From assembly GCA_023270015.1 (NCBI GenBank), contig JAGDXZ010000013.1, positions 1-49,117 of the forward strand: 49,117 nucleotides of DNA, written 5' to 3'. A model generated the notes under the pieces. That model was not told the origin of the DNA. It did not search any database and saw nothing but the letters and a program-made list of their open reading frames with translations. Every line of letters starts with the position of its first letter. Position 1 is the stretch's first letter. The DNA is from Candidatus Micrarchaeota archaeon (lineage in GTDB: Archaea; Micrarchaeota; Micrarchaeia; Micrarchaeales; CABMGC01). The position numbers were made by a program, and so were the translations under genes. Below, one piece after another: positions 6,298 to 49,117 of the stretch.

Positions 6298-7026
6298 CTA
6301 TCCCTCTATGAAGCCGTATCCCTCTCTTTCTATTTTTTCAGCTAGCTCTCTTCCGCCGCTTGCAACTATCTTGCCCTTATCCATTACGTAAACTTTTGTC
6401 GGATTTATGTAGCTTAGTATGCGAGTATAATGGGTTATGAGAAGAATGCCAGCATGTGACTCTTTTTCATACATGTTTATGGCTTCTGCCACCTTTTTCA
6501 ACGTGTCAACATCTAAGCCGGAATCGGGCTCATCAAGAATCGCAAACTTTGGCTTGAGAACAAGCATCTGCATGATTTCTACCTTCTTCTTTTCTCCTCC
6601 AGAGAAGCCCACATTCACATCCTTTTTGAGCATCTCCTCTTTCAGATCAAGGATCTTAATTGCCTTTTCAATATCCTCCTCTATTTGCCTTGCACTTACT
6701 TTGCTCTGTGCTGTCTTTGCAGCAAAGATGAAGTTTTCTAGGTTTACGCCCTCTATCTCAATTGGCTCTTGAAACTGCATGAATATGCCAAGCTTTGCCC
6801 TTTCATCAGGCCCCATGCCAAGTATGCTCTTTCCATCTACTAAAATTTCTCCGGAATCAATCGCAAGACCAGGATAGCCCATAATGGCCATTCCGAGCGT
6901 CGTCTTGCCGGAACCGTTTGGCCCCATGAGCACAGTAATCTCATCAGATTTCATGCTAAGGCTTGCATGCTCCAATATCTTTTTCCCCTGTATGCTTACG
7001 CACAAATCCTTTACTTCTATCTCCAT
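6298..7026 (-). CDS. sufC: Fe-S cluster assembly ATPase SufC
   Basis: Walker A GPNGSGKTT, ABC signature FSGGEKKK, Walker B ILDEPDSGLD. Its TAG stop lies 1 nt before the sufS ATG. Confidence 0.95.
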   Translation of the reverse strand: MEIEVKDLCVSIQGKKILEHASLSMKSDEITVLMGPNGSGKTTLGMAIMGYPGLAIDSGEILVDGKSILGMGPDERAKLGIFMQFQEPIEIEGVNLENFIFAAKTAQSKVSARQIEEDIEKAIKILDLKEEMLKKDVNVGFSGGEKKKVEIMQMLVLKPKFAILDEPDSGLDVDTLKKVAEAINMYEKESHAGILLITHYTRILSYINPTKVYVMDKGKIVASGGRELAEKIEREGYGFIEG

Positions 7027-7030
7027 GTTA

Positions 7031-8104
7031 TCACGATCTTAGCTTCGAATTCAGCGAAGCTTCCGCCTCTTCAAGCATTATTTTGCCTTTTTCGCTTCCA
7101 AACTTTCCTGTCAACAGTTTCTCCAAGAATCCTGTGGCAAACAGCTGCCTTGCATTGCCTTCGCTTACTCCTCTTGACATTATGTAAAATATGCTTTTCT
7201 TGCCTAGCGGGAATACTGCCGAGCTGTGGCTTGCGTTTGCAACGTTGTTTGTATCTACTGCCATGTCAGGCATCGGCACAAAGCTTGCACCATCGTTAAG
7301 CAACAAGCCTTTCTCTTCTATGTAGGTGCTAGCCTCCTCTGCGCTTTGCCTTACCTTTGCCAACTCCTTGACCAGGCATTCGGCATTGTCTTTTACCACC
7401 GCCCTTGTAAGCGATTCAATGCTAGAATTGCGTCCTTCGTTAACTAGCAAAGAAGAAAGATCTATTATTTGAGAACTGCCTGCAACAGCGACCGTGCTCG
7501 AGGCGATTGAACCGCCATCTTCGGCAACGCCTATTGTGCCATGGTGCAGCCTGTTGCCCCCTGCAAATACATTCGTAAGTCTTGCTTCCGCGTTTTTGCC
7601 TGAATGTACAAGGCTGAGAAGCGCATAGTTTGCATTTGCTGGTTCTTTGTGAAGCGCCACTAGATTTAGCTTTGAACTTTCATCAAGTTCCATTTCCTGC
7701 GATAGTATGCCATCTGATGAAAAGTTAGATGAAAAAGTTTCATAAATATCTAATGACGCATGCTTTCCCAGCCTTATTTTGATTTTTGAAGGCAGCGAGG
7801 AGTCGAAAATGAAAGCCATATTCATTGTTACTTCTTTACCGTCTTCTATACTTATTGTTAATGGATTGCTGACGTTCTCTGTCAATCTTATTATTTCTGC
7901 GTCGTTTGCTATGCTTATGCCCTCGCTCTCTACGCTAGATGCATGCTCCGAGCTAAATGCCACAATATCATAATCTTTGCTTGTTCCTTTTTCTCTGCCT
8001 GAGCTTTTATCTTCGAATCTAATAGGTATTGGCCTGCCGTGCCTTTTGTAGAGCTCGCCCCTTTCTTTTTCTAGTTCTCCAAAGTCCTCTAGCCATTCTA
8101 GCAT
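7031..8104 (-). CDS. sufD: Fe-S cluster assembly protein SufD (short, divergent)
   Basis: C-terminal FYIMSRGVSEGNARQLFATGFL parallels the SufB motif FYLKSRGISEDDAVSLVVFGFI. The start overlaps the sufB stop (TAATG). Confidence 0.8.
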   Translation of the reverse strand: MLEWLEDFGELEKERGELYKRHGRPIPIRFEDKSSGREKGTSKDYDIVAFSSEHASSVESEGISIANDAEIIRLTENVSNPLTISIEDGKEVTMNMAFIFDSSLPSKIKIRLGKHASLDIYETFSSNFSSDGILSQEMELDESSKLNLVALHKEPANANYALLSLVHSGKNAEARLTNVFAGGNRLHHGTIGVAEDGGSIASSTVAVAGSSQIIDLSSLLVNEGRNSSIESLTRAVVKDNAECLVKELAKVRQSAEEASTYIEEKGLLLNDGASFVPMPDMAVDTNNVANASHSSAVFPLGKKSIFYIMSRGVSEGNARQLFATGFLEKLLTGKFGSEKGKIMLEEAEASLNSKLRS

Positions 8105-9513
8105 TAGCCCACCGAGCCCGCCATGTTAAGCTTTATGAGCCTTTTGAGCTCAAGCACGTAATCCAGCGGCAGCTTCTCTGCAAAGTCCTTTATGAAACCA
8201 AAGACAACAAGCGATACCGCATCGTCTTCGCTTATCCCTCTGCTTTTAAGGTAGAACAGCATCTTGTCGCTGAGCTTGCCTACCTTGGCCTCGTGTGCTA
8301 CTGTCGCTGTTCTGTTCTTTATTTCGAAATAAGGATATGTGGTTGTTTTTGTATTGGTGTCTAGCAGCAGCGTGTTGCAAGAGGAGCTTGCGACAGCATT
8401 TTCTGCATTTTCAGCTATGCTTACTAAGCCTCTAAAAGAAGCTATGCCACTTCCTTTTGCCACGCTCTTTGAGATAAGCCTCGAAGATGTGTTGGGAGCA
8501 AGATGATATATTTTGCCCCCAGAGTCGAGCACTTGTCCGTCGCTTGCCAACGCAACTGATATGACCTCTCCTTTCGAATTTGGTTCTTTGAGGAATATGC
8601 TTGGGTACTTCATGTTTATCCTGCTCCCTATGTTCATGTCGTACCATTCCACGCTTGCATTCTCATAAGCATGCGCCCTTTGCGTGACAAGGTTGTATAT
8701 ATTCTTTGACCAGTTCTGCACAGTAATGTATCTAACATGCGCGTTTCTCTTTGCTATTACCTCAACTACAGCAGCATGTAGGCTTGTTGTGGAATAAAGG
8801 GGAGCCGTGCAGCCTTCTGTGTAAACAACATCAGCGCCTTCCTCAGCTATTATTAGAGTTCTCTCAAACTGGCCGAAAGATTCTGAGTTTATTCTGAAAT
8901 AAGCATTTAGTGGCAAAGGAACTTTAACGCCTTTGGGCACATAGATGAACGAGCCTCCACTCCAAACAGCAGTATTAAGCGCAGCAAACTTGTTATCGGT
9001 TGGTGGTATTACCGTTCCAAAATATTTTTCGACTATGTCGCCATATTCTTTAACCGCAGTGTCTGTGTCAGTGAATATTACCCCAAGTTTTTCAAGCTGA
9101 TCTCTTATATTGGCGTATACTGCGTTTGAATCAAACTGAGCCTCTACGCCCGCAAAGAACTTTCTCTCGGCTTCAGGCACGCCCAACTTTTCGAATGTCT
9201 GCTTGATTTCATCTGGTATCTCCTCCCAGCTTGCGCCCTTCTGTGCGTTTGGCGCTCTGTAGTAGTAAATGTCGTCAAAGTCTATTCCGCTTAAATCAGG
9301 ACCCCACTTGGGCAAAGGCTTTGATTTAAACACCTTGTAGCCAAGCAGTCTTTTTTCGAGCATCCATTTTGGTTCATGTTTAAGCCTTGAGATCTCCTTT
9401 ACTACCTCTTCATCTAGGCCTTTCCTGAAAGGAACATACTCCACATTAGTCCTAAACCCATACTTTGCCTCATAATTCTCGTTCCAGTTAATTGGTTGCT
9501 TGCTCTCTACCAT
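8104..9513 (-). CDS. sufB: Fe-S cluster assembly scaffold SufB
   Basis: Strongly conserved SufB sequence throughout, for example FYLKSRGISEDDA; 469 aa. Confidence 0.95.
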   Translation of the reverse strand: MVESKQPINWNENYEAKYGFRTNVEYVPFRKGLDEEVVKEISRLKHEPKWMLEKRLLGYKVFKSKPLPKWGPDLSGIDFDDIYYYRAPNAQKGASWEEIPDEIKQTFEKLGVPEAERKFFAGVEAQFDSNAVYANIRDQLEKLGVIFTDTDTAVKEYGDIVEKYFGTVIPPTDNKFAALNTAVWSGGSFIYVPKGVKVPLPLNAYFRINSESFGQFERTLIIAEEGADVVYTEGCTAPLYSTTSLHAAVVEVIAKRNAHVRYITVQNWSKNIYNLVTQRAHAYENASVEWYDMNIGSRINMKYPSIFLKEPNSKGEVISVALASDGQVLDSGGKIYHLAPNTSSRLISKSVAKGSGIASFRGLVSIAENAENAVASSSCNTLLLDTNTKTTTYPYFEIKNRTATVAHEAKVGKLSDKMLFYLKSRGISEDDAVSLVVFGFIKDFAEKLPLDYVLELKRLIKLNMAGSVG

Positions 9514-9517
9514 GATA

Positions 9518-9832
9518 TCATGCTTGTGCTTTGCTAAGCTGGCATGAAAAGCCTCCTATTTTCTGGCACAGCGCGCACAAAGCAGGGCTTTTATTGCCAA
9601 GCAGGCCTTCAACATACTCCTCTATTGCAGCCTTATGCTCTCTCAATTTTTCTGCAAGCTTTTCATTGACTTCTTGCTTTTCCTTCAAGTACTTGCTAAC
9701 CGCTGCTTGCGTTATGTTTAGCCTTTTTGCTATCTCTGTTTCTTTCATACCATATGCCCTCAGCCTGTTTGCTATTTCCTTTCGGATTGCTGGCAGAATT
9801 TGGATATATGCCATTTCATAAACGCTTTTCAT
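9518..9832 (-). CDS. Small HTH transcriptional regulator with a C-terminal Cys cluster, first gene of the suf operon
   Basis: HTH segment ETEIAKRLNITQAAVSKYLK. C-terminal CALCQKIGGFSC (C-x2-C-x7-C). 4-nt gap to sufB. Confidence 0.7.
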   Translation of the reverse strand: MKSVYEMAYIQILPAIRKEIANRLRAYGMKETEIAKRLNITQAAVSKYLKEKQEVNEKLAEKLREHKAAIEEYVEGLLGNKSPALCALCQKIGGFSCQLSKAQA

Positions 9833-9850
9833 AGACTCACTTATAACTCT

Positions 9851-9864
9851 GTTATATTTTTAAG
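9851..9864 (-). promoter_or_regulatory. TATA-like box upstream of the suf regulator gene
   Basis: Minus-strand CTTAAAAATATAAC, centred about 26 nt upstream of the ATG at 9832. This suggests a leaderless or very short-leader mRNA. Confidence 0.4.
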
Positions 9865-9959
9865 CAGGGTAAGGTTTAAATAACTAGACTCTATACCAAG
9901 GAACAAGACGATAAAGAAAAAGAAGAGCAAAATAGAAAAACAAAAAAGAAAGAGTTATT

Positions 9960-10331
9960 TCATTTGTATGCTAGCCCGCTTCCGATGAATGCTAGTACGA
10001 ATCCTAGCAGAGCGGTTGCAAGATATGTTGTGTTAGTCCATACGAGCACTGTTAGTGCGAATCCTGTCGCTACTGTAGCGCACATTGCCGCTTTCGCTAT
10101 GCCCATTCTGTCCCAGCCTAGCAGGTTGCCGAAGCTAATGAAGAAGAGTGCTATGCTGCCGATTACTGCTGCACCGAGGAAGAATGGTAGCCACAGTCCC
10201 GCGCTGCCACCAAAAACCCCACCTGCTGTGGCGAGCAAACCGCCTGGAACTGCAAAGGCTACGAAGAGGTAGGCCAAGCTGCCTAGAAATTCTAGGACGA
10301 ATGCCCCCCAATTCTGCGTCTGTTTTGCCAT
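9960..10331 (-). CDS. Small integral membrane protein (about 4 TM), unknown function
   Basis: G/A/L-rich hydrophobic segments. Clean ORF with an AT-rich upstream region. Confidence 0.6.
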   Translation of the reverse strand: MAKQTQNWGAFVLEFLGSLAYLFVAFAVPGGLLATAGGVFGGSAGLWLPFFLGAAVIGSIALFFISFGNLLGWDRMGIAKAAMCATVATGFALTVLVWTNTTYLATALLGFVLAFIGSGLAYK

Positions 10332-10446
10332 TTTATCACTGACTTATACATTACAAGATATATTTAAAAACTTATTTCCATGGTTCGCAGGATCTGAATA
10401 AGGGGCATGCGGGAGTGGCAGAAAAGAAAAAAGACAACACTAGGCC

Positions 10447-10459
10447 ATTTTAAAATTTT
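10447..10459 (+). promoter_or_regulatory. TATA-like box upstream of the GT2 gene
   Basis: ATTTTAAAATTTT, centred about 24 nt upstream of the ATG at 10477. Confidence 0.4.
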
Positions 10460-10476
10460 GTTCCTAAACCATTTGT

Positions 10477-11172
10477 ATGATTGGCCGAGTAACAGTAGTA
10501 GTTCCAGTATTCAATGAGGAAAAGACGATAGGGCAAGTACTGATGGATGTGTCCAGAATCCCGTTCGTAAGCAAAATAATAGTGGTCGATGACGGATCTA
10601 GAGATAAAACGTTGACTGTGGCGAGAAAGGCACTTAGATCAGCAAGCAAACACGGCAAAGCTGAGTTAATTCACTATGAAAAAAACAGAGGGAAAGGATA
10701 TGCGCTTAGAAAGGCTTTCAAGTTAATTAAAAATGGGCTTGTGATAATTCAGGATGCTGACTTAGAGTATTCTCCGGAAGACTATCCTAAGCTGATTGCT
10801 GCTTTGGACAAAAGCAGCGTTGTTTTTGGAAATAGGTTTGTGCTGAAAAATGAAGGCCATGAATACTTTCTGGCAAAGCTAGGAAATCAGTTTGCAAGCT
10901 TTATTTTCAGCTTACTTTATGGCCAGAAAATCCATGACATTAATGTAGGTTACAAAGCTTTCAGAGTTTCGGCGCTCAAAGGGATTGTGCTTAAAGAAGA
11001 CGGTTTCTTGATAGAGGAAGAGCTTGCTGTAGGGTTTGCAAAGAAAGGAATAAAGATCCAGGAAGTTCCTATACACTATAGAGGCAGGACTTTTGAAGAG
11101 GGAAAGAAGATCAGAGCAAAGGATGGGATAATGGGTGTTATATTTTTGCTGAAAAAGAGGTTTTTGGAATGA
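10477..11172 (+). CDS. Glycosyltransferase family 2 (dolichyl-phosphate glycosyltransferase-like)
   Basis: VVVPVFNEE...VVDDGSRDKT...QDADLEY motifs. Confidence 0.85.
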   Translation: MIGRVTVVVPVFNEEKTIGQVLMDVSRIPFVSKIIVVDDGSRDKTLTVARKALRSASKHGKAELIHYEKNRGKGYALRKAFKLIKNGLVIIQDADLEYSPEDYPKLIAALDKSSVVFGNRFVLKNEGHEYFLAKLGNQFASFIFSLLYGQKIHDINVGYKAFRVSALKGIVLKEDGFLIEEELAVGFAKKGIKIQEVPIHYRGRTFEEGKKIRAKDGIMGVIFLLKKRFLE

Positions 11173-12308
11173 GGATTGCGTTTGCATACGAATCAGCATA
11201 TCCTTGGTTCAATGGGGGCATAGAAAAAAGGAGATACAACATTCTCAAGGCCCTCTCGAAAAGCAAGAAATACGAGCTTCACATGTTTACTCTTTATAGG
11301 CCAGGTATGCCAGGAAGAGAGTTTGAATATGAGGGAGTGAAATATCATTGTGTAGGTGTCGGGACAGAAATCAGTAGTATGTATAAAGGCTCAAGGCGCT
11401 CGATGCTGATGTCGATAAAGTTTGCCCTGCTTCTATTTCTGCACATTTGGAAATACAGATTTGACATTATTGACACTGACTCATTCCCTTTTCTCCATAT
11501 CCCTCTGCTTTATATTTACGCAAAACTTAGGAGAACATACCTAGTGACCACATGGCATGAAGTGTGGAGCAAGGAGTTTTGGAAAGGCTACCTTCACAGG
11601 CTTGGTTTTGTAGGATTTTTCTTCGAATATCTTTCCGCCAAGCTGCCAAGTATGCATATAGCGAACACCTCTACCACAAAGAAGCTTCTGAGGCAATATT
11701 TCTCCGTTGAGCCCAAAAAGGTGCTCGTGTTGCCGGCAGCGGTAGATCAGGAAGAGGTAGAAAGGTTTCTAGCCAAGCATGCATGCAAGCAGGAGAACAA
11801 GTTTATAGTGGCGAATAGGCTTGTTTTTCACAAGCGTACCGATATAGCAGTTAAAAGCATCAAAGGCGTAGACGCAAAGCTAGTTATAATCGGCAAAGGA
11901 CCTGAGCTAAGCAACCTCAAAGAGCTTGCAAAGCAGCTAGGTGTAGATAAGCAAGTAGTTTTTAAGCAAGACCTTACAGAGCAGCAGCTATATGAGGAGC
12001 TTTGCACGTCTTTGGCTTTGATCATGGTCTCTGAGCGTGAAGGCCTGTCACTCATCACCGCCGAAGCCCTTTCGCTTGGCGTGCCTGTAGTTGTGTCTAG
12101 CAACACCTCATTACCGCCAGAGATACTCAAATACTGCCTTAGGTCAAAAACCGAAGATGTACATGATTTATTATTAAAAATAAGGAAAAACGCTGCTGCT
12201 TATAAACAAAGCTACTTAAAACAAAGAAAAGAGGTGCTTGCAGAATTTTCAGGGGCTGCTTCAGAAGCTGTATATAACGCCATATCGCGTGCCAGAGAGG
12301 CAAAATAA
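11169..12308 (+). CDS. Glycosyltransferase, GT-B fold (group 1 / GT4-like)
   Basis: C-terminal SEREGLSLITAEALSLGVPVV (E-x7-E type motif). 4-nt overlap with the preceding GT2 gene. Confidence 0.8.
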   Translation: MRIAFAYESAYPWFNGGIEKRRYNILKALSKSKKYELHMFTLYRPGMPGREFEYEGVKYHCVGVGTEISSMYKGSRRSMLMSIKFALLLFLHIWKYRFDIIDTDSFPFLHIPLLYIYAKLRRTYLVTTWHEVWSKEFWKGYLHRLGFVGFFFEYLSAKLPSMHIANTSTTKKLLRQYFSVEPKKVLVLPAAVDQEEVERFLAKHACKQENKFIVANRLVFHKRTDIAVKSIKGVDAKLVIIGKGPELSNLKELAKQLGVDKQVVFKQDLTEQQLYEELCTSLALIMVSEREGLSLITAEALSLGVPVVVSSNTSLPPEILKYCLRSKTEDVHDLLLKIRKNAAAYKQSYLKQRKEVLAEFSGAASEAVYNAISRAREAK

Positions 12309-45219: not shown

Positions 45220-45354
45220 TTCCTCTTTTAACAGATGCTTTCTTTAAAATTTTAAAATATTTGTACAATAAGCAGCATAGCTTGATGCCTCTGGCTGGCC
45301 CCTTTTCTGCAAAAACAAAAATAAATAAAAAACAAACTGCATAGTATATTAGAA

Positions 45355-45427
45355 GCCCTGGTAGCTCAGCCGGTAGAGCGCCTGTCTTGTAAACAGGAGG
45401 CCGAGGGTTCAAATCCCTCTCAGGGCT
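45355..45427 (+). tRNA. tRNA-Thr (anticodon TGT)
   Basis: Acceptor GCCCTGG/TCAGGGC. Anticodon arm CCTGT-CTTGTAA-ACAGG. T arm GAGGG-TTCAAAT-CCCTC. Confidence 0.9.
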
Positions 45428-45562
45428 TATGTACAAATGGTTCGTTGCCCTTTTGACATGGAACAGCTTCTTTTAGTGGGTAAATCGGCACAACTGTAGG
45501 ATGTTGGATTTTAAATGCCTATTCTTCAAGTACAGGTCGATTCTCTGCTATGGTGATTGTAT

Positions 45563-47647
45563 CTAATTTGCAGGTAGTTGTTTTACTCCGCTATCCAATA
45601 CTTGATTTACATTTATTAGATTTAATTCCCCTGCATTTTGATAGCTCGTGAATTCTGTATCTCCTTCTGATTCGGCTTGACTAAAACTTGCTCCTCCCCC
45701 CATCATTGTAGTTTCTATGCAATCTACGATGTGGCTGTTGCTAGTCGTTTGAACGCAAACAAAAGCATGTCCAGGAACAAGAGCTATATAGGTCTGCATA
45801 CCTATTGCCACAGTTGCGCTTGCGAATACCAAAGTGCCATCTATGCAATTTTCTCCACCAGCAGCTAAGCTTTGAACAGGTGTATATACAGTTTGTTCAC
45901 CATAAAAGTCAGTTGGTGCGTTTACATAGTGCATCCCCTCAGATTGAAGCTGATTATATATTGCCTGCAGCTGTAGGTTTGTGGTCTCCGAAGCATTGCA
46001 TGGTGAAAGACCAAGCAGACCGCATCCAGAAGGATAAGTTTCGCTATAACCAACCATGGCTTTGCCTGGAAGGTTTAAGGATGCGTTTGCAACCAACTGA
46101 TGAATAGCAGGAGCAGTAGGCTGCACCCATGCTGCAATCAAGTTATCATATAATCCGCCAAACCAATCCATTGTATTGAAACTTGTAAGATTTGCAGGGT
46201 AACTATTTTGATAAACGACATTACCTTTTGAATCGGTAACGGTTAGCTGATAAGTTACTGTCTGTGCTTGAAGATTAGAGAATACTTGACTGCTTAGAGG
46301 GAGGTTCAGATGTAAGATGATGCTTGAGCCAGGTGGTATTGTAATATCTTGGCTAACCGGTGAACTCCAAGAAGGTATTTGGAGTGTTACTGTGCCCATA
46401 AAAGTACCAGATCCAGAATTTGATATTTCTATGGTGGTCATGTTTGTCTGCAAATATGCGGTGTTTATCGCAAAGGCAGGCACTATTGGGTTGCCTACAT
46501 ATGGTGTCATAGCAAATTGAACACTTAAACTCGTAGTTGGAAGTAAACTTATTGTAATGCCGCTGGATATTGAGGAATTGGAATAAATATAAGCATTGAT
46601 GGTAGCTTGTCCTGCTAGGTTGGGTGCAGTATAGACTACACTGCAACTTCCTGAACTATCCGTCGTGCAATAATTTTGTATATTGCCTTCATTAGTATAA
46701 AATGAGACTTTAGTATTTCCTACAGGATTTCCTAACCTGTTAGTTACTTTTGCAGTTATTATGGTTGTACTGTACCCATTTCCATTTATTGAATTATTAA
46801 GGGCAGTCAAAGAAACTGATGAAGGAGTCAAAGGCTGTAATGTGATATTTGTTGAAGCAGTTGCATTGTATGATGTGGCAGATATAGTTATGTTACCAGG
46901 AAAAATTGATGCAGTATAAGTAACTTGACACTTGCCATTAACTGTGGCGCAAGAAGTAGAAGACAATGAGCCACTACCACTCAAACTAAATGTAACTTGC
47001 GTTCCATCAGGCACAGGGCTGCTCTGATTGTCATAGGCACGAACAATTATTGTTGTTGAAGAGCTACCATCTGCAGGTAAACTTGGATTTATTGCGCTTA
47101 AAACCAGTTTTGTTGTAGGATCTGGATTAACTTTCACCAATATAGTTTTTGTTATGCTACCAATACTCAAAGTAATATTAATATACGAAGGCGTTGCCTG
47201 CTTCGGTGGAGTAAATATTACTTCGCAACTGCCAGAATTGTCTGTGGTACATCCACTTACCGAACCTCCATTTGTCGAGGCTTGAATAGAAGCGCCACTT
47301 ATTGGCGTATTTAAGTTGCTAAACAAAGAAACAGGGATTTGGTAGCTAGATTTCCCATTTCCGATGAAGTTTTGAATTGAACTCGAATACATTGATGAAA
47401 TATGATTCGGTGTGGAGTTTTGTACAAACAAATACGCACCTATCAGTGCTACTATAATCACAGCCAAAATTATGAAAAATCTAGGTTTAAAGCGTCCCAG
47501 TATAATTTTCTCTTCTTGTGTCCTATTCATCGAAGCTGATTTTTTAATCAATTTTTCATTTTCTACATCTTCCTTTTTCAGTTTTAAATACTCATTTCTA
47601 TTGATCTCTCCTTTTGCATACTTAATCTCAACTTTGGTATCTTTCAT
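45563..47647 (-). CDS. Type II membrane protein: N-terminal SHOCT module, TM, three Big_1-like Ig domains, a beta-rich domain, C-terminal transglutaminase-like domain
   Basis: SHOCT module: VEIKYAKGEINRNEYLKLKK. TM: FFIILAVIIVALIGAYLF. Big_1-like units: LPADGSSSTTIIVRAYD..PVPDGTQVTF...CATVNGKC and two relatives. The C-terminal 202 aa carry GENCIDGTLVFAS...PGHAFVCV...VDCIE, a candidate C-H-D triad. Confidence 0.7.
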   Translation of the reverse strand: MKDTKVEIKYAKGEINRNEYLKLKKEDVENEKLIKKSASMNRTQEEKIILGRFKPRFFIILAVIIVALIGAYLFVQNSTPNHISSMYSSSIQNFIGNGKSSYQIPVSLFSNLNTPISGASIQASTNGGSVSGCTTDNSGSCEVIFTPPKQATPSYINITLSIGSITKTILVKVNPDPTTKLVLSAINPSLPADGSSSTTIIVRAYDNQSSPVPDGTQVTFSLSGSGSLSSTSCATVNGKCQVTYTASIFPGNITISATSYNATASTNITLQPLTPSSVSLTALNNSINGNGYSTTIITAKVTNRLGNPVGNTKVSFYTNEGNIQNYCTTDSSGSCSVVYTAPNLAGQATINAYIYSNSSISSGITISLLPTTSLSVQFAMTPYVGNPIVPAFAINTAYLQTNMTTIEISNSGSGTFMGTVTLQIPSWSSPVSQDITIPPGSSIILHLNLPLSSQVFSNLQAQTVTYQLTVTDSKGNVVYQNSYPANLTSFNTMDWFGGLYDNLIAAWVQPTAPAIHQLVANASLNLPGKAMVGYSETYPSGCGLLGLSPCNASETTNLQLQAIYNQLQSEGMHYVNAPTDFYGEQTVYTPVQSLAAGGENCIDGTLVFASATVAIGMQTYIALVPGHAFVCVQTTSNSHIVDCIETTMMGGGASFSQAESEGDTEFTSYQNAGELNLINVNQVLDSGVKQLPAN

Positions 47648-47666
47648 ACAATCTCCGAATAGTTTA

Positions 47667-48341
47667 CTATCCCGAGGTACTAAGTTGGCAAATTGGTGGA
47701 TTAGTTAATATTAATTTATATCCTGCTGGGCATGCATCATATAATACACATTTACCTAATGTATGGTTAAAAATATAACTAGGGGGGCACTGAGGCGGAG
47801 GAACACACATGTGCATGTAATTATTATATTCTGCTCCAGCAATACACGCCGTAGGGGGAGACTCACAGTTTTGATTATTTTCCCACACAGCGTAAGCAGG
47901 GCATGGGGGCAATACTCGAATAGTAAAATTGCAAGTTGCCCCATTACAATGACCAACTTGAGTAGTGGAATTATTATAATTCCAATATTTATAGAAGCAT
48001 TGTGGAGGTATTGAAGAACTATTGAAATAAAAATTTGAAGGGCAGGTAGGTTGTACTTCACACAAATTTCCAGAAGCACATAAGGGAGTTAATGTAAGTG
48101 GCTTTGGTGGATTGAATATTCCTGTTTGAGTAATAAAGATAGCCACAACAATCAAAATCAACATAATAATAAAAGACTTTAATACTAAATGATTATTTGG
48201 TTTTTTGTTTATTTGATTTGCATTTGTTGATTTACTCACTTCTCCTACTAAATCTTTTAGCATCTCTTTATATTGTTTCTCTGTAATCTCTCCCTTTGCA
48301 TAGCGGTGCTTAAGAATTTTTATAAATTCTTCATCTGCCAT
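47667..48341 (-). CDS. Type II membrane protein: N-terminal SHOCT module, TM, Cys-rich extracellular domain
   Basis: SHOCT module: ILKHRYAKGEITEKQYKEMLKDL. TM: FIIMLILIVVAIFI. The ectodomain has many Cys in repeated C-P-x-x-Y/F...C units (TCPSNFYF, PCPAYAVW, QCPPSYIF, ACPAGYKL). Confidence 0.7.
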   Translation of the reverse strand: MADEEFIKILKHRYAKGEITEKQYKEMLKDLVGEVSKSTNANQINKKPNNHLVLKSFIIMLILIVVAIFITQTGIFNPPKPLTLTPLCASGNLCEVQPTCPSNFYFNSSSIPPQCFYKYWNYNNSTTQVGHCNGATCNFTIRVLPPCPAYAVWENNQNCESPPTACIAGAEYNNYMHMCVPPPQCPPSYIFNHTLGKCVLYDACPAGYKLILTNPPICQLSTSG

Positions 48342-48345
48342 TAAA

Positions 48346-48930
48346 CTACCCCCCTAGGTCCTTTTTCATTTGTTTATATTGCTTCTTTGTAAGTTCTCCT
48401 TTAGCATATCTTTCTTTTAAGATTGCAATTGCATCTTCTTTTTCAACTTCTTCTTCTACTTTAAATTTAGTATTGCTTCGAGTTATGTTGGGAATCTTTG
48501 ATTGGTGTTTTAAGGCAAATATTGTTGCAAAGCTTCCACCTATTACTAGGATAAAGCCTATTAATAACCCACCATAATCAATGAGACTAATTATTGCCAA
48601 AATTATAATTGCTATGGATAAGTTTATTGTTTTTGAACTAGATCTCTCTGAATAAGCAAGGCCAACGAGAAGAAACACTATTACTGCGGAAAGAATTCCT
48701 ATAAAACCAATAAGATTAAAACCATATACCTGGTGTGGCATACCGTAACTGCAAGATTCAATTTCGAATCCCAGAGGCCAAGTATTACTTAAAAAGTGTG
48801 TGCTGGTAATGGTATTGTTATAGTTTTCACAATACCATGCCACAGGTGCCCATGCCGTACTCACTCCGACTATTAATATAATTAGGCCACCAATCAAAAT
48901 TGCAAGAAAATTTCCAAGCTTCATGACCAT
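48346..48930 (-). CDS. 4-TM membrane protein with a C-terminal SHOCT module
   Basis: Four hydrophobic segments. The first extracellular loop has two Cys and an NNT sequon. The C-terminal ILKERYAKGELTKKQYKQMKKDL matches the SHOCT pattern. AGGTG SD and a TATA-like ATATTTAAAATTT lie upstream. Confidence 0.7.
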   Translation of the reverse strand: MVMKLGNFLAILIGGLIILIVGVSTAWAPVAWYCENYNNTITSTHFLSNTWPLGFEIESCSYGMPHQVYGFNLIGFIGILSAVIVFLLVGLAYSERSSSKTINLSIAIIILAIISLIDYGGLLIGFILVIGGSFATIFALKHQSKIPNITRSNTKFKVEEEVEKEDAIAILKERYAKGELTKKQYKQMKKDLGG

Positions 48931-49117
48931 AGCTGCACCTATAGTAACTAATTGTTAAATTTTAAATATCTTCTTACGATGAGCAATTTTGTTATTAAAT
49001 AAAATTTCTTTAAAATCCTTGTTTATTTGTGTTTAAACAAACGATCTTTATGCAAGGCAAGCAAATACCTGTCTGGAGCCTATCGTTAAAATTTCAAAGC
49101 AAAGTAGGGCTGGAATT

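Follow-up and report, generated by a model that had tools for sequence, protein, structure and literature searches.

A variable operon of Micrarchaeia predicted to encode a stalk-mounted transglutaminase-like protein and SHOCT-tailed companion membrane proteins

Background

Here we describe a three-gene operon (gA, gB and gC) at one end of the contig JAGDXZ010000013.1 of a Candidatus Micrarchaeota archaeon (assembly GCA_023270015.1); the analysed stretch, referred to as the window, is this one complete contig of 49,117 bp. The genes are predicted to encode membrane proteins that share a SHOCT-like module at one terminus, and the gC product also carries a stalk of immunoglobulin (Ig)-like domains and a transglutaminase-like domain in which a Cys-His-Glu triad is invariant. 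Our preferred reading, which we hold with about even confidence, is that the genes form an accessory, horizontally exchanged surface-protein operon of Micrarchaeia (DPANN archaea), in which a stalk-mounted transglutaminase-like enzyme is combined with exchangeable companions and a shared tail.

A role in oligomerisation or nucleic-acid binding was proposed for the SHOCT domain in the paper that defined it, and the experiment reported there gave no support for oligomerisation (Eberhardt et al. 2013; PMC3581485). In a later comparative genomics study SHOCT-like domains were predicted to anchor disparate domains to the inner leaflet of the membrane, and it was suggested that they may help to assemble membrane complexes (Ravi et al. 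2024; PMC11237479). The proteins of the present operon resemble the described SHOCT proteins in having a presumably bi-helical terminal module of ~28 amino acids (aa) beside transmembrane (TM) segments, which is predicted to be cytoplasmic and membrane-proximal and is combined with many unrelated partners. They differ in that three adjacent genes bear the module and in that it is N-terminal in two of them, whereas it is predominantly C-terminal in the proteins described.

With respect to gC, the intimin and invasin adhesins of Gram-negative bacteria likewise use a tandem Big_1/Invasin_D3 stalk to present a functional tip. Unlike these adhesins, gC lacks a β-barrel outer-membrane anchor, LysM and a C-type-lectin tip and has instead a predicted archaeal N-in TM segment and a transglutaminase-like tip, and with its bacterial matches it has only the Ig domains in common (24-37% identity, covering 20-56% of the query). 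According to Foldseek, the tip domain belongs to the same fold class as LapG (a BTLCP, which releases the LapA adhesin), the pseudomurein endoisopeptidases PeiW and PeiP, PNGase and CPR-C4, several of which work outside the cytoplasm on proteins or polymers of the envelope. As in these enzymes, the modelled gC domain has a Cys at the N-terminus of a helix, a His starting the next-but-one β-strand and an acidic residue directly after the following strand, but it differs from them in having no sequence match to solved structures, Glu as the third member of the triad and a membrane-anchored Ig stalk.

Among the Micrarchaeota, 'Ca. Mancarchaeum acidiphilum' Mia14 has large, laterally acquired and island-borne surface proteins (with PKD, CARDB, Kelch/YVTN and LamG domains) that were proposed to act in host contact, and cultured Micrarchaeota live attached to Thermoplasmatales (Golyshina et al. 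2017; PMC5498576). The operon comes from the same phylum-level group and one related locus (L002, see below) encodes a SHOCT-Kelch protein, but the Mia14 paper describes neither Big_1/transglutaminase-like proteins nor SHOCT operons and mentions SHOCT only as a copper-island neighbour (PMC5498576). Our literature searches found no description of a SHOCT-tailed surface-protein operon or of concerted SHOCT/zinc-ribbon tail swapping, and nothing relevant on transglutaminases in Micrarchaeota or DPANN archaea.

Organisation of the operon

The initial annotation of the window had placed three co-oriented genes next to the 3' end of a tRNA-Thr gene, and the coordinates agree with this: all three genes are on the minus strand, with intergenic gaps of 4 nucleotides (nt; gA/gB) and 19 nt (gB/gC), and the operon converges on the tRNA gene, which is on the opposite strand and has its 3' end 134 nt from the end of gC.

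48930..48346, minus strand: gA, open reading frame (ORF) of 194 aa, predicted 4-TM protein with a C-terminal SHOCT module
48341..47667, minus strand: gB, ORF of 224 aa, predicted type-II membrane protein, Cys-rich
47647..45563, minus strand: gC, ORF of 694 aa, predicted type-II membrane protein, last gene of the operon
45354..45428, plus strand: tRNA-Thr gene, anticodon TGT (ARAGORN; Rfam tRNA, 73.4 bits)
48931..49117, minus strand: presumed promoter region of the operon upstream of gA, 29% GC

Minus-strand transcription would proceed from the AT-rich end of the contig, situated 187 nt upstream of gA, towards tRNA-Thr. A TATA-like sequence, ATATTTAAAATTT, is found ~27-40 nt before the gA start codon and AGGTG 5-9 nt before the same codon, and the second spacer includes GGAG 8 nt ahead of the gC start codon.

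Domain architecture of gC

The gC protein is composed of, in order, a degenerate SHOCT tail, a TM segment, three Big_1 domains, a β-sandwich and a transglutaminase-like Cys-His-Glu domain.

47567..47626, minus strand: SHOCT-like tail, residues 8-27 (VEIKYAKGEINRNEYLKLKK), identified with a local hidden Markov model (HMM), Pfam matches of orthologues and a DNA repeat copy
47411..47479, minus strand: single TM anchor, residues 57-79 (Kyte-Doolittle peak 3.08)
46553..47365, minus strand: stalk, residues ~95-365, three Big_1/Invasin_D3-type Ig-like domains (Pfam)
46166..46534, minus strand: fourth β-sandwich, residues 372-494 (AlphaFold2 model, in which residues 1-122 are all-β; Foldseek)
45566..46165, minus strand: transglutaminase-like (papain-like) α/β domain, residues 495-694 (AlphaFold2, Foldseek, invariant triad)
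45845-45847, 45767-45769 and 45713-45715, minus strand: triad residues C601, H627 and E645, respectively (invariant columns)

The TM anchor is preceded by the basic stretch GRFKPR, with KPRFF kept in the orthologues. An adhesin-like Ig stalk had been expected for this protein, and the Big_1 model indeed matches in three stretches (E-value 2.3e-26; Invasin_D3, 2.7e-22), with one invariant Cys pair in each domain (133/141, 233/240 and 327/335). All 11 Cys residues are situated past the TM segment, as are almost all the glycosylation sequons in the proteins of the operon, and the five conserved Cys pairs of gC together with its many sequons are consistent with a position outside the cell.

An AlphaFold2 model of residues 372-694 (predicted local distance difference test score, pLDDT, 81.7) has a β-sandwich followed by an α/β domain. 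In Foldseek searches the β-sandwich matches GbpA, a FixG-related protein (2r39) and the β-sandwich domains of transglutaminases, and because it dominated the Foldseek results for the whole segment, residues 495-694 were modelled separately (pLDDT 85.1, predicted TM-score 0.86). For this second model the majority of the Protein Data Bank (PDB) matches are transglutaminase-fold proteins, i.e., XPC/Rad4, LapG, PeiP/PeiW, PNGase, menin, TglA, CPR-C4 and a Bacteroidales 'putative protease', with E-values from 2e-3 to 7e-2 and TM-scores of 0.3-0.46; the best-scoring match of all (E-value 6e-4) is an unnamed chain from a flagellar doublet microtubule. In the numbering of the model, Cys107 opens a helix (107-120), His133 opens a strand (133-139) and Glu151 directly follows a strand (147-150). 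The corresponding C601 (motif NCIDG), H627 (PGHAF) and E645 (ETT) are invariant in 16 sequences down to 28% identity (the homologues span 28-90%), and also in a Methanoregula homologue. The papain-fold domain of the initial annotation is thus supported at the level of fold, by the AlphaFold2 model and Foldseek, and we suggest that it is an active transglutaminase-like cysteine enzyme using the triad C601/H627/E645.

Judged from profile searches, the enzyme domain defines a large, separate family without a Pfam model of its own. Among 1.84 billion proteins its profile recovered 5314 cluster representatives with E ≤1e-3, and 2486 at the stricter level of E ≤1e-10. Ten family members were scanned with Pfam, and in none of them does a model reach its threshold across the domain; the PDB, searched with the gC sequence and with the profile of the enzyme domain, yielded nothing useful. 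Two members have sub-threshold family matches, P0059 to Transglut_core (22.5 bits, cut-off 23) and P0084 to DUF553 (E-value 5.5e-3). About half of the top 146 members have an N-terminal hydrophobic segment, and others are evidently cytoplasmic, e.g. P0131, in which the domain is fused to a STAND-type AAA ATPase. In Methanoregula (L008/L009) the β-sandwich and the enzyme module make up a stand-alone protein of 368 aa with a lipobox-like signal, predicted to be a lipoprotein.

One family match raises the question of a defence or exclusion system, i.e., a surface enzyme acting against viruses or competing cells: residues 404-637 of gC match positions 13-240 of the NCBIfam model NF058533 ('anti-phage protein ProA') with an E-value of 1.2e-21. 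The STAND-type fusion in P0131 points in the same direction, and so does the presence of the cluster in variable regions near PIN, transposase and resolvase genes. However, the ProA match scores 76 bits against a cut-off of 1500 for a model of 1903 positions, and since it covers the N-terminal part alone it indicates one shared domain rather than ProA membership; a literature search turned up no paper describing ProA. Moreover, PADLOC reported nothing for gB and gC and a chance-level KwaB match for gA (E-value 0.0036), there were no PHROGs matches and no relatives in viral contigs, and an extracellular, stalk-mounted placement is unlike the architectures of cytoplasmic effectors. A defence role for the operon is, in our view, very improbable.

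The shared tail and the companion proteins

All three proteins have at one terminus a module of ~28 aa with the core [RK]-Y-x-x-G-E-[ILM]-[ST]-x-x-[EQ]-[YF]. ORF and HMM positions place it where it was originally seen, at the C-terminus of the 4-TM protein and at the N-termini of gB and gC:

48349-48435, minus strand: gA C-terminal SHOCT, residues 166-194 (Pfam, above cut-off)
48243-48329, minus strand: gB N-terminal SHOCT, residues 5-33 (Pfam and local HMM)
48120-48188, minus strand: gB TM segment, residues 52-74 (hydropathy)

The claim that each product carries a SHOCT module stands for the motif, but with Pfam SHOCT (PF09851, gathering cut-off 27 bits) only gA passes (30.8 bits); gB is slightly below (24.8 bits, E-value 1.7e-5) and gC of the window has no match at E ≤1, a level reached by five of 11 gC orthologues (best E-value 4.3e-5). 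We also built a local SHOCT HMM from 12 gA- and gB-type modules, leaving out gC, and used it to search the window together with 24 related loci (25 sequences and 2097 ORFs altogether). It matches genes of the cluster only, with E-values of 5e-18 for gA, 4.6e-18 for gB and 5.7e-12 to 2e-5 for the tails of the gC orthologues, the window gC being the weakest match (6.9e-4, 16 bits). In the latter tail the first helix is truncated and the identity to the gA and gB tails is 28-31%, such that it is the orthologues and the local HMM that allow it to be recognised. At the DNA level the module-coding segments form a family of three 50-nt direct repeats with 64-70% identity (47571-47620, 48253-48302 and 48359-48408). 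By motif and profile the module is genuine in all three proteins, with a degenerate copy in the gC of the window. Across loci, tail identity is 0.61-0.65 for gA and gB and 0.41 for gC.

Given that AT-rich DNA easily encodes Lys-rich motifs, the ORFs might be due to chance and the module a low-complexity motif. The conservation data effectively refute this: proteins of other metagenomes match these ORFs with 32-86% identity and keep the Cys residues and the triad invariant, the Pfam domains are significant, and the module HMM matches nothing else in the ORF set.

Hydropathy, the placement of Cys residues and sequons past the TM segments and the Lys-rich character of the tails suggest that the modules are on the cytoplasmic side (N-in or C-in). 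In gB, all 14 Cys residues and all five N-X-S/T sequons lie past its single TM segment, in a predicted ectodomain (residues ~80-224). Full-length gB orthologues are present in L002, L005 and L016 with 32-39% identity and all 14 Cys residues invariant, as anticipated for a disulfide-rich domain, and within gB conservation is highest in the SHOCT module (52-72% identity between loci, compared with 32-39% for the whole protein). We found no significant relative of gB in Pfam, NCBIfam or the PDB. Its residues ~148-204 give chance-level, non-significant matches to chitin-binding Cys-knot proteins (CBM_14, E-value 0.43; tachycitin 1dqc, 0.71).

In gA, hydropathy predicts four TM segments within residues ~7-142 and two Cys residues in the first outside loop. 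The protein is conserved in architecture only, i.e., several TM segments and a C-terminal SHOCT module, with an analogue of 162 aa in L002. Residues 72-135 have a very weak Pfam match to PF09685 (DUF4870; E-value 0.55), a family which, under the name Tic20, is among the known fusion partners of SHOCT (PMC3581485).

Host lineage and related loci

Among the products of the contig are a Hel308-type helicase that has the archaeal domain 4 and also an ATP-dependent DNA ligase. The ligase is 97% identical to a 'Candidatus Micrarchaeia archaeon' protein and has more than 100 Micrarchaeia, Micrarchaeaceae and Micrarchaeota matches at 66-87%. Among the GTDB species genomes, a full-length gC orthologue is present solely in the Micrarchaeota metagenome-assembled genome YF1.bin18, and together with the ligase matches this identifies the host as a DPANN archaeon of the Micrarchaeia.

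Searching 5.8 billion protein clusters we identified 11 full-length gC orthologues with 48-86% identity, to which metagenome contigs and a search of representatives added a few that are less closely related (37-46%). The total of ~15 orthologue clusters, nearly all in Micrarchaeia-like contigs, compares with thousands for the core ligase. The loci are as follows (percentages are identities to the gC of the window; the neighbours given are those on the strand of gC unless absent):

L002: gC 61%, SHOCT tail; on the same strand a 4-TM protein with C-terminal SHOCT, a SHOCT-TM-Kelch protein and a gB orthologue
L005: gC 62%, SHOCT tail; on the same strand a C-terminal-SHOCT protein, a gB orthologue and a 43-aa SHOCT remnant
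L004: gC 62%, protein identical to that of L005, SHOCT tail; on the same strand one C-terminal-SHOCT protein of 290 aa
L016: variant of the L004/L005 gC, no tail; on the same strand a SHOCT-tailed gB orthologue (the sole discordant case)
L011: gC 54%, SHOCT tail; a C-terminal-SHOCT protein with a secreted ectodomain and an N-terminal-SHOCT protein whose ectodomain, a small β-sandwich, is not related to gB
L012: gC 48%, SHOCT tail; neighbours arranged as in L011
L027 (GCA_039793605.1, JBAMLM010000581.1): gC 86%, SHOCT tail; upstream an ectodomain of the L011/L012 β-sandwich type, its tail end cut by the contig end
L003, the same as L007 (YF1.bin18): gC 52%, zinc-ribbon tail; two zinc-ribbon-tailed membrane proteins upstream and a SHOCT-tailed one downstream
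L025/L026: gC 58%, no tail; upstream a Cys-rich companion without tail
L010: gC 48%, no tail; no companions, purine-biosynthesis genes adjoining
L019: gC 37%, no tail; no companions, purine-biosynthesis genes adjoining
L017: gC 46%, zinc-ribbon tail; neighbours out of view at the contig start
L018: gC 39%, zinc-ribbon tail; no companions apparent

The gC tail can hence be a SHOCT module, a zinc ribbon or absent, which indicates that it is modular and dispensable in evolution, and judged from the sequences the companions are a changing set across loci. As to the recurrence of a SHOCT-anchored gene triplet, SHOCT-anchored neighbours do recur, gB with true orthologues; gA, in contrast, recurs by architecture only, the ectodomains vary and gC stands without companions in L010 and L019. 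Wherever the flank is readable (L002, L004, L005, L011 and L012), a SHOCT-tailed gC is flanked by SHOCT-tailed membrane proteins, and among the nine informative loci there are eight in which gC and the gene immediately upstream have the same tail type (the window, L002, L004, L005, L011, L012, L003 and L025/26, with L016 as the exception).

In L003, positions 6456-9780 (6213-9537 in L007), three consecutive genes of 200, 190 and 704 aa each encode an N-terminal CxxC...CxxC zinc ribbon ahead of TM segments, an arrangement parallel to that of the SHOCT operon. After this trio come a 184-aa SHOCT-tailed protein and a 326-aa multi-TM protein, the C-terminal domain of which is 57% identical to residues 116-175 of gC.

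These data bear on the proposal that the SHOCT tails associate with each other in the cytoplasm and so seed an obligate hetero-oligomer of the envelope comprising the Ig stalk, the enzyme and the disulfide-rich domain. The concerted change of tail type, to zinc ribbons in L003 and to none in L025/26, is its strongest argument, and the tight linkage of the genes, the SHOCT-tailed companions of SHOCT-tailed gC proteins and the high conservation of SHOCT within gB also speak for it. Nevertheless, the view of SHOCT as an oligomerisation unit, on which the initial annotation relied, has not been borne out: the sole published test, by size-exclusion, in the paper that defined the domain, found no SHOCT oligomerisation (PMC3581485). 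In addition, the gC tail of the window is degenerate, with low identity to its neighbours' tails and no Pfam match, gC orthologues exist with neither tail nor companions (L010, L019), L016 has a tailless gC beside a SHOCT-tailed gB, and the companion ectodomains vary even next to the 86%-identical gC of L027. We regard an obligate complex of this kind as unlikely.

Recombination and horizontal exchange

The L005 locus has a 161-nt direct repeat with 96% identity (311-471 and 1154-1314), the second copy being directly ahead of gC. The repeat spans the end of a gA-like gene, a 4-nt spacer and the start of a gB-like gene (SHOCT-stop-start-SHOCT). As a result, the gB and gC of this locus have identical first 22 residues, an 843-bp gB cassette is bracketed by the direct repeats and a 43-aa SHOCT remnant ORF is left behind. 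This duplicated junction shows that shared tails can arise by recombination, a non-functional route to them that also counts against the obligate complex considered above. In L004, L005 and L016, which are from the same or related samples, identical or near-identical gC genes have different upstream genes and, taken together with the L005 repeat, this marks the tail-coding ends as sites of rearrangement. General gene conversion homogenising the tails within loci was considered and rejected, as the within-locus identities (0.58, 0.44 and 0.44) are similar to those between loci (0.57, 0.41 and 0.40).

The junction also raises the possibility that the products are three independent surface proteins, whose common tail reflects descent or recombination or is a generic topogenic (positive-inside) signal, with no joint function. 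Near-identical gC genes with different companions, lineages in which gC is alone (L010, L019) and the fusion of SHOCT to dozens of unrelated architectures (PMC3581485) are all compatible with this. On the other hand, the operon spacing suggests co-expression, the combination of a C-terminally tailed multi-TM or secreted protein, an N-terminally tailed protein with a small ectodomain and gC recurs where gC identity is just 48-62%, and the tail type is concordant over three states (SHOCT, zinc ribbon and none). In our estimate there is only a small chance that the three proteins are functionally unconnected.

Base composition and gene context are in keeping with the preferred reading of an accessory, exchanged operon. 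The operon had been noted as AT-richer than the flanking genes, and both profiles agree: its GC content of 0.377 is the minimum among all 3.6-kb windows of the contig (mean 0.444, standard deviation 0.016), and the GC content at third codon positions (GC3) is 0.277, 0.244 and 0.289 for gA, gB and gC, respectively, compared with 0.469±0.052 for the 43 other ORFs of the contig (lowest 0.317), i.e., 3.5-4.3 standard deviations lower. The low GC3 means that the AT-richness is present at the codon level and is not merely due to the proteins being rich in Asn, Ser and Ile. A similar difference is seen for the L002 cluster (7516-12133 of a 117-kb Micrarchaeia-like contig), which has a GC content of 0.374 against 0.449 for its flanks, whereas clusters on low-GC contigs match their own flanks (0.34-0.39). 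The pattern points to a transfer from lineages of low GC into others of higher GC. The 86%-identical gC of L027 is found in a different context, with another upstream cassette and downstream DNA that differs from that of the window (no tRNA within 187 nt), and transposase, resolvase and PIN genes occur near other copies of the cluster.

In L004, an exact direct repeat of ~4.1 kb (1-~4100 and 11530-~15600, spacing 11,529 bp) brackets the gC locus. It holds genes for a 915-aa protein and a 349-aa membrane protein, and could have arisen as a genuine segmental duplication or composite element, or else by misassembly of strain variants.

The tRNA-Thr gene and the contig ends

An atypical composition beside the 3' end of a tRNA gene is a property of genomic islands, and it is found here (GC 0.377 versus 0.444; GC3 0.24-0.29). 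In line with the initial annotation, an ORF scan revealed no integrase-like ORF in the window and a repeat search, allowing up to three mismatches, no second copy of the 3' 22 nt of tRNA-Thr. The far boundary was likewise correctly placed outside the window: the contig ends shortly past gA, and as the window is the whole contig the boundary is out of sight. None of the related clusters elsewhere adjoins a tRNA-Thr gene, and the same strain in another sample is represented by contigs of just 1-2 kb. Synteny of gC with an ABC-2 transporter in the window and L010 was considered as evidence against an island and rejected, the ATPases being 31% identical, as is typical of any ABC pair.

The contig also starts inside a tRNA gene (1-53; Rfam tRNA, 38 bits; 5' end cut), and the first ORF (261-1094, 277 aa, no Pfam match) is the one that has the lowest GC3, 0.317, among the 43 non-operon ORFs. 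Both contig ends thus consist of a tRNA gene and then AT-rich DNA, and may be variable regions where the assembly broke.

Proposed function of the operon

In the model that we favour, gC would be the functional core, having a single-pass N-in anchor, a stalk of about four β-sandwich domains (three Big_1 and one more) and the enzyme at its tip, where it may cleave, or less likely cross-link, proteins on an opposing (host) surface or in the cell's own envelope. The 4-TM gA and gB with its putative seven-disulfide ectodomain would be exchangeable companion membrane proteins. The shared tail, a Lys-rich, presumably bi-helical juxtamembrane module, may place the products at one sub-membrane site, provided by the inner leaflet or by a partner common to them, which does not require a fixed stoichiometric complex. 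The conserved tail-coding DNA ends would be the places where ectodomain cassettes are swapped by recombination, and such swapping would explain why neighbours have common tails and differing ectodomains.

One could go further and view the tails (SHOCT, zinc ribbon or none) as interchangeable 'address codes' that gather the products of one operon into a composite host-contact organ around the stalk enzyme, with the tail DNA as recombination handle and surface variation for attachment or host range as the outcome. We put this forward as a speculation that is probably wrong in at least some of its parts.

Several observations weigh against the favoured model. The fold matches of the enzyme domain are weak in absolute terms (best E-value 6e-4, TM-scores 0.3-0.46), and no Pfam transglutaminase model (Transglut_core PF01841 or related) matches gC at E ≤1. 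The tail concordance comes from few loci, which are phylogenetically related, and with the exception of L005 the SHOCT modules within a locus are no more alike than those of different loci, such that ongoing gene conversion is not general. There is no integrase or attR in the window, the boundary being beyond the contig. Finally, a role in host contact is suggested solely by analogy with the lifestyle of cultured Micrarchaeota (PMC5498576).

Conclusions

We conclude that the operon is best read as an undescribed, variable surface-protein cassette operon built of known parts. For host recognition, attachment and breaching by DPANN archaea there are few candidate molecules, and the operon provides a concrete candidate. 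Its enzyme domain also exposes a large transglutaminase-like family, with more than 5000 representatives in secreted and in cytoplasmic, STAND-fused contexts. Furthermore, the gC family, with its SHOCT, zinc-ribbon or missing tails and neighbours that follow suit, constitutes a natural experiment on SHOCT, a widespread domain of no assigned function. If the tails do act as address codes, the operon would represent a surface-variation system for host attachment or host range.

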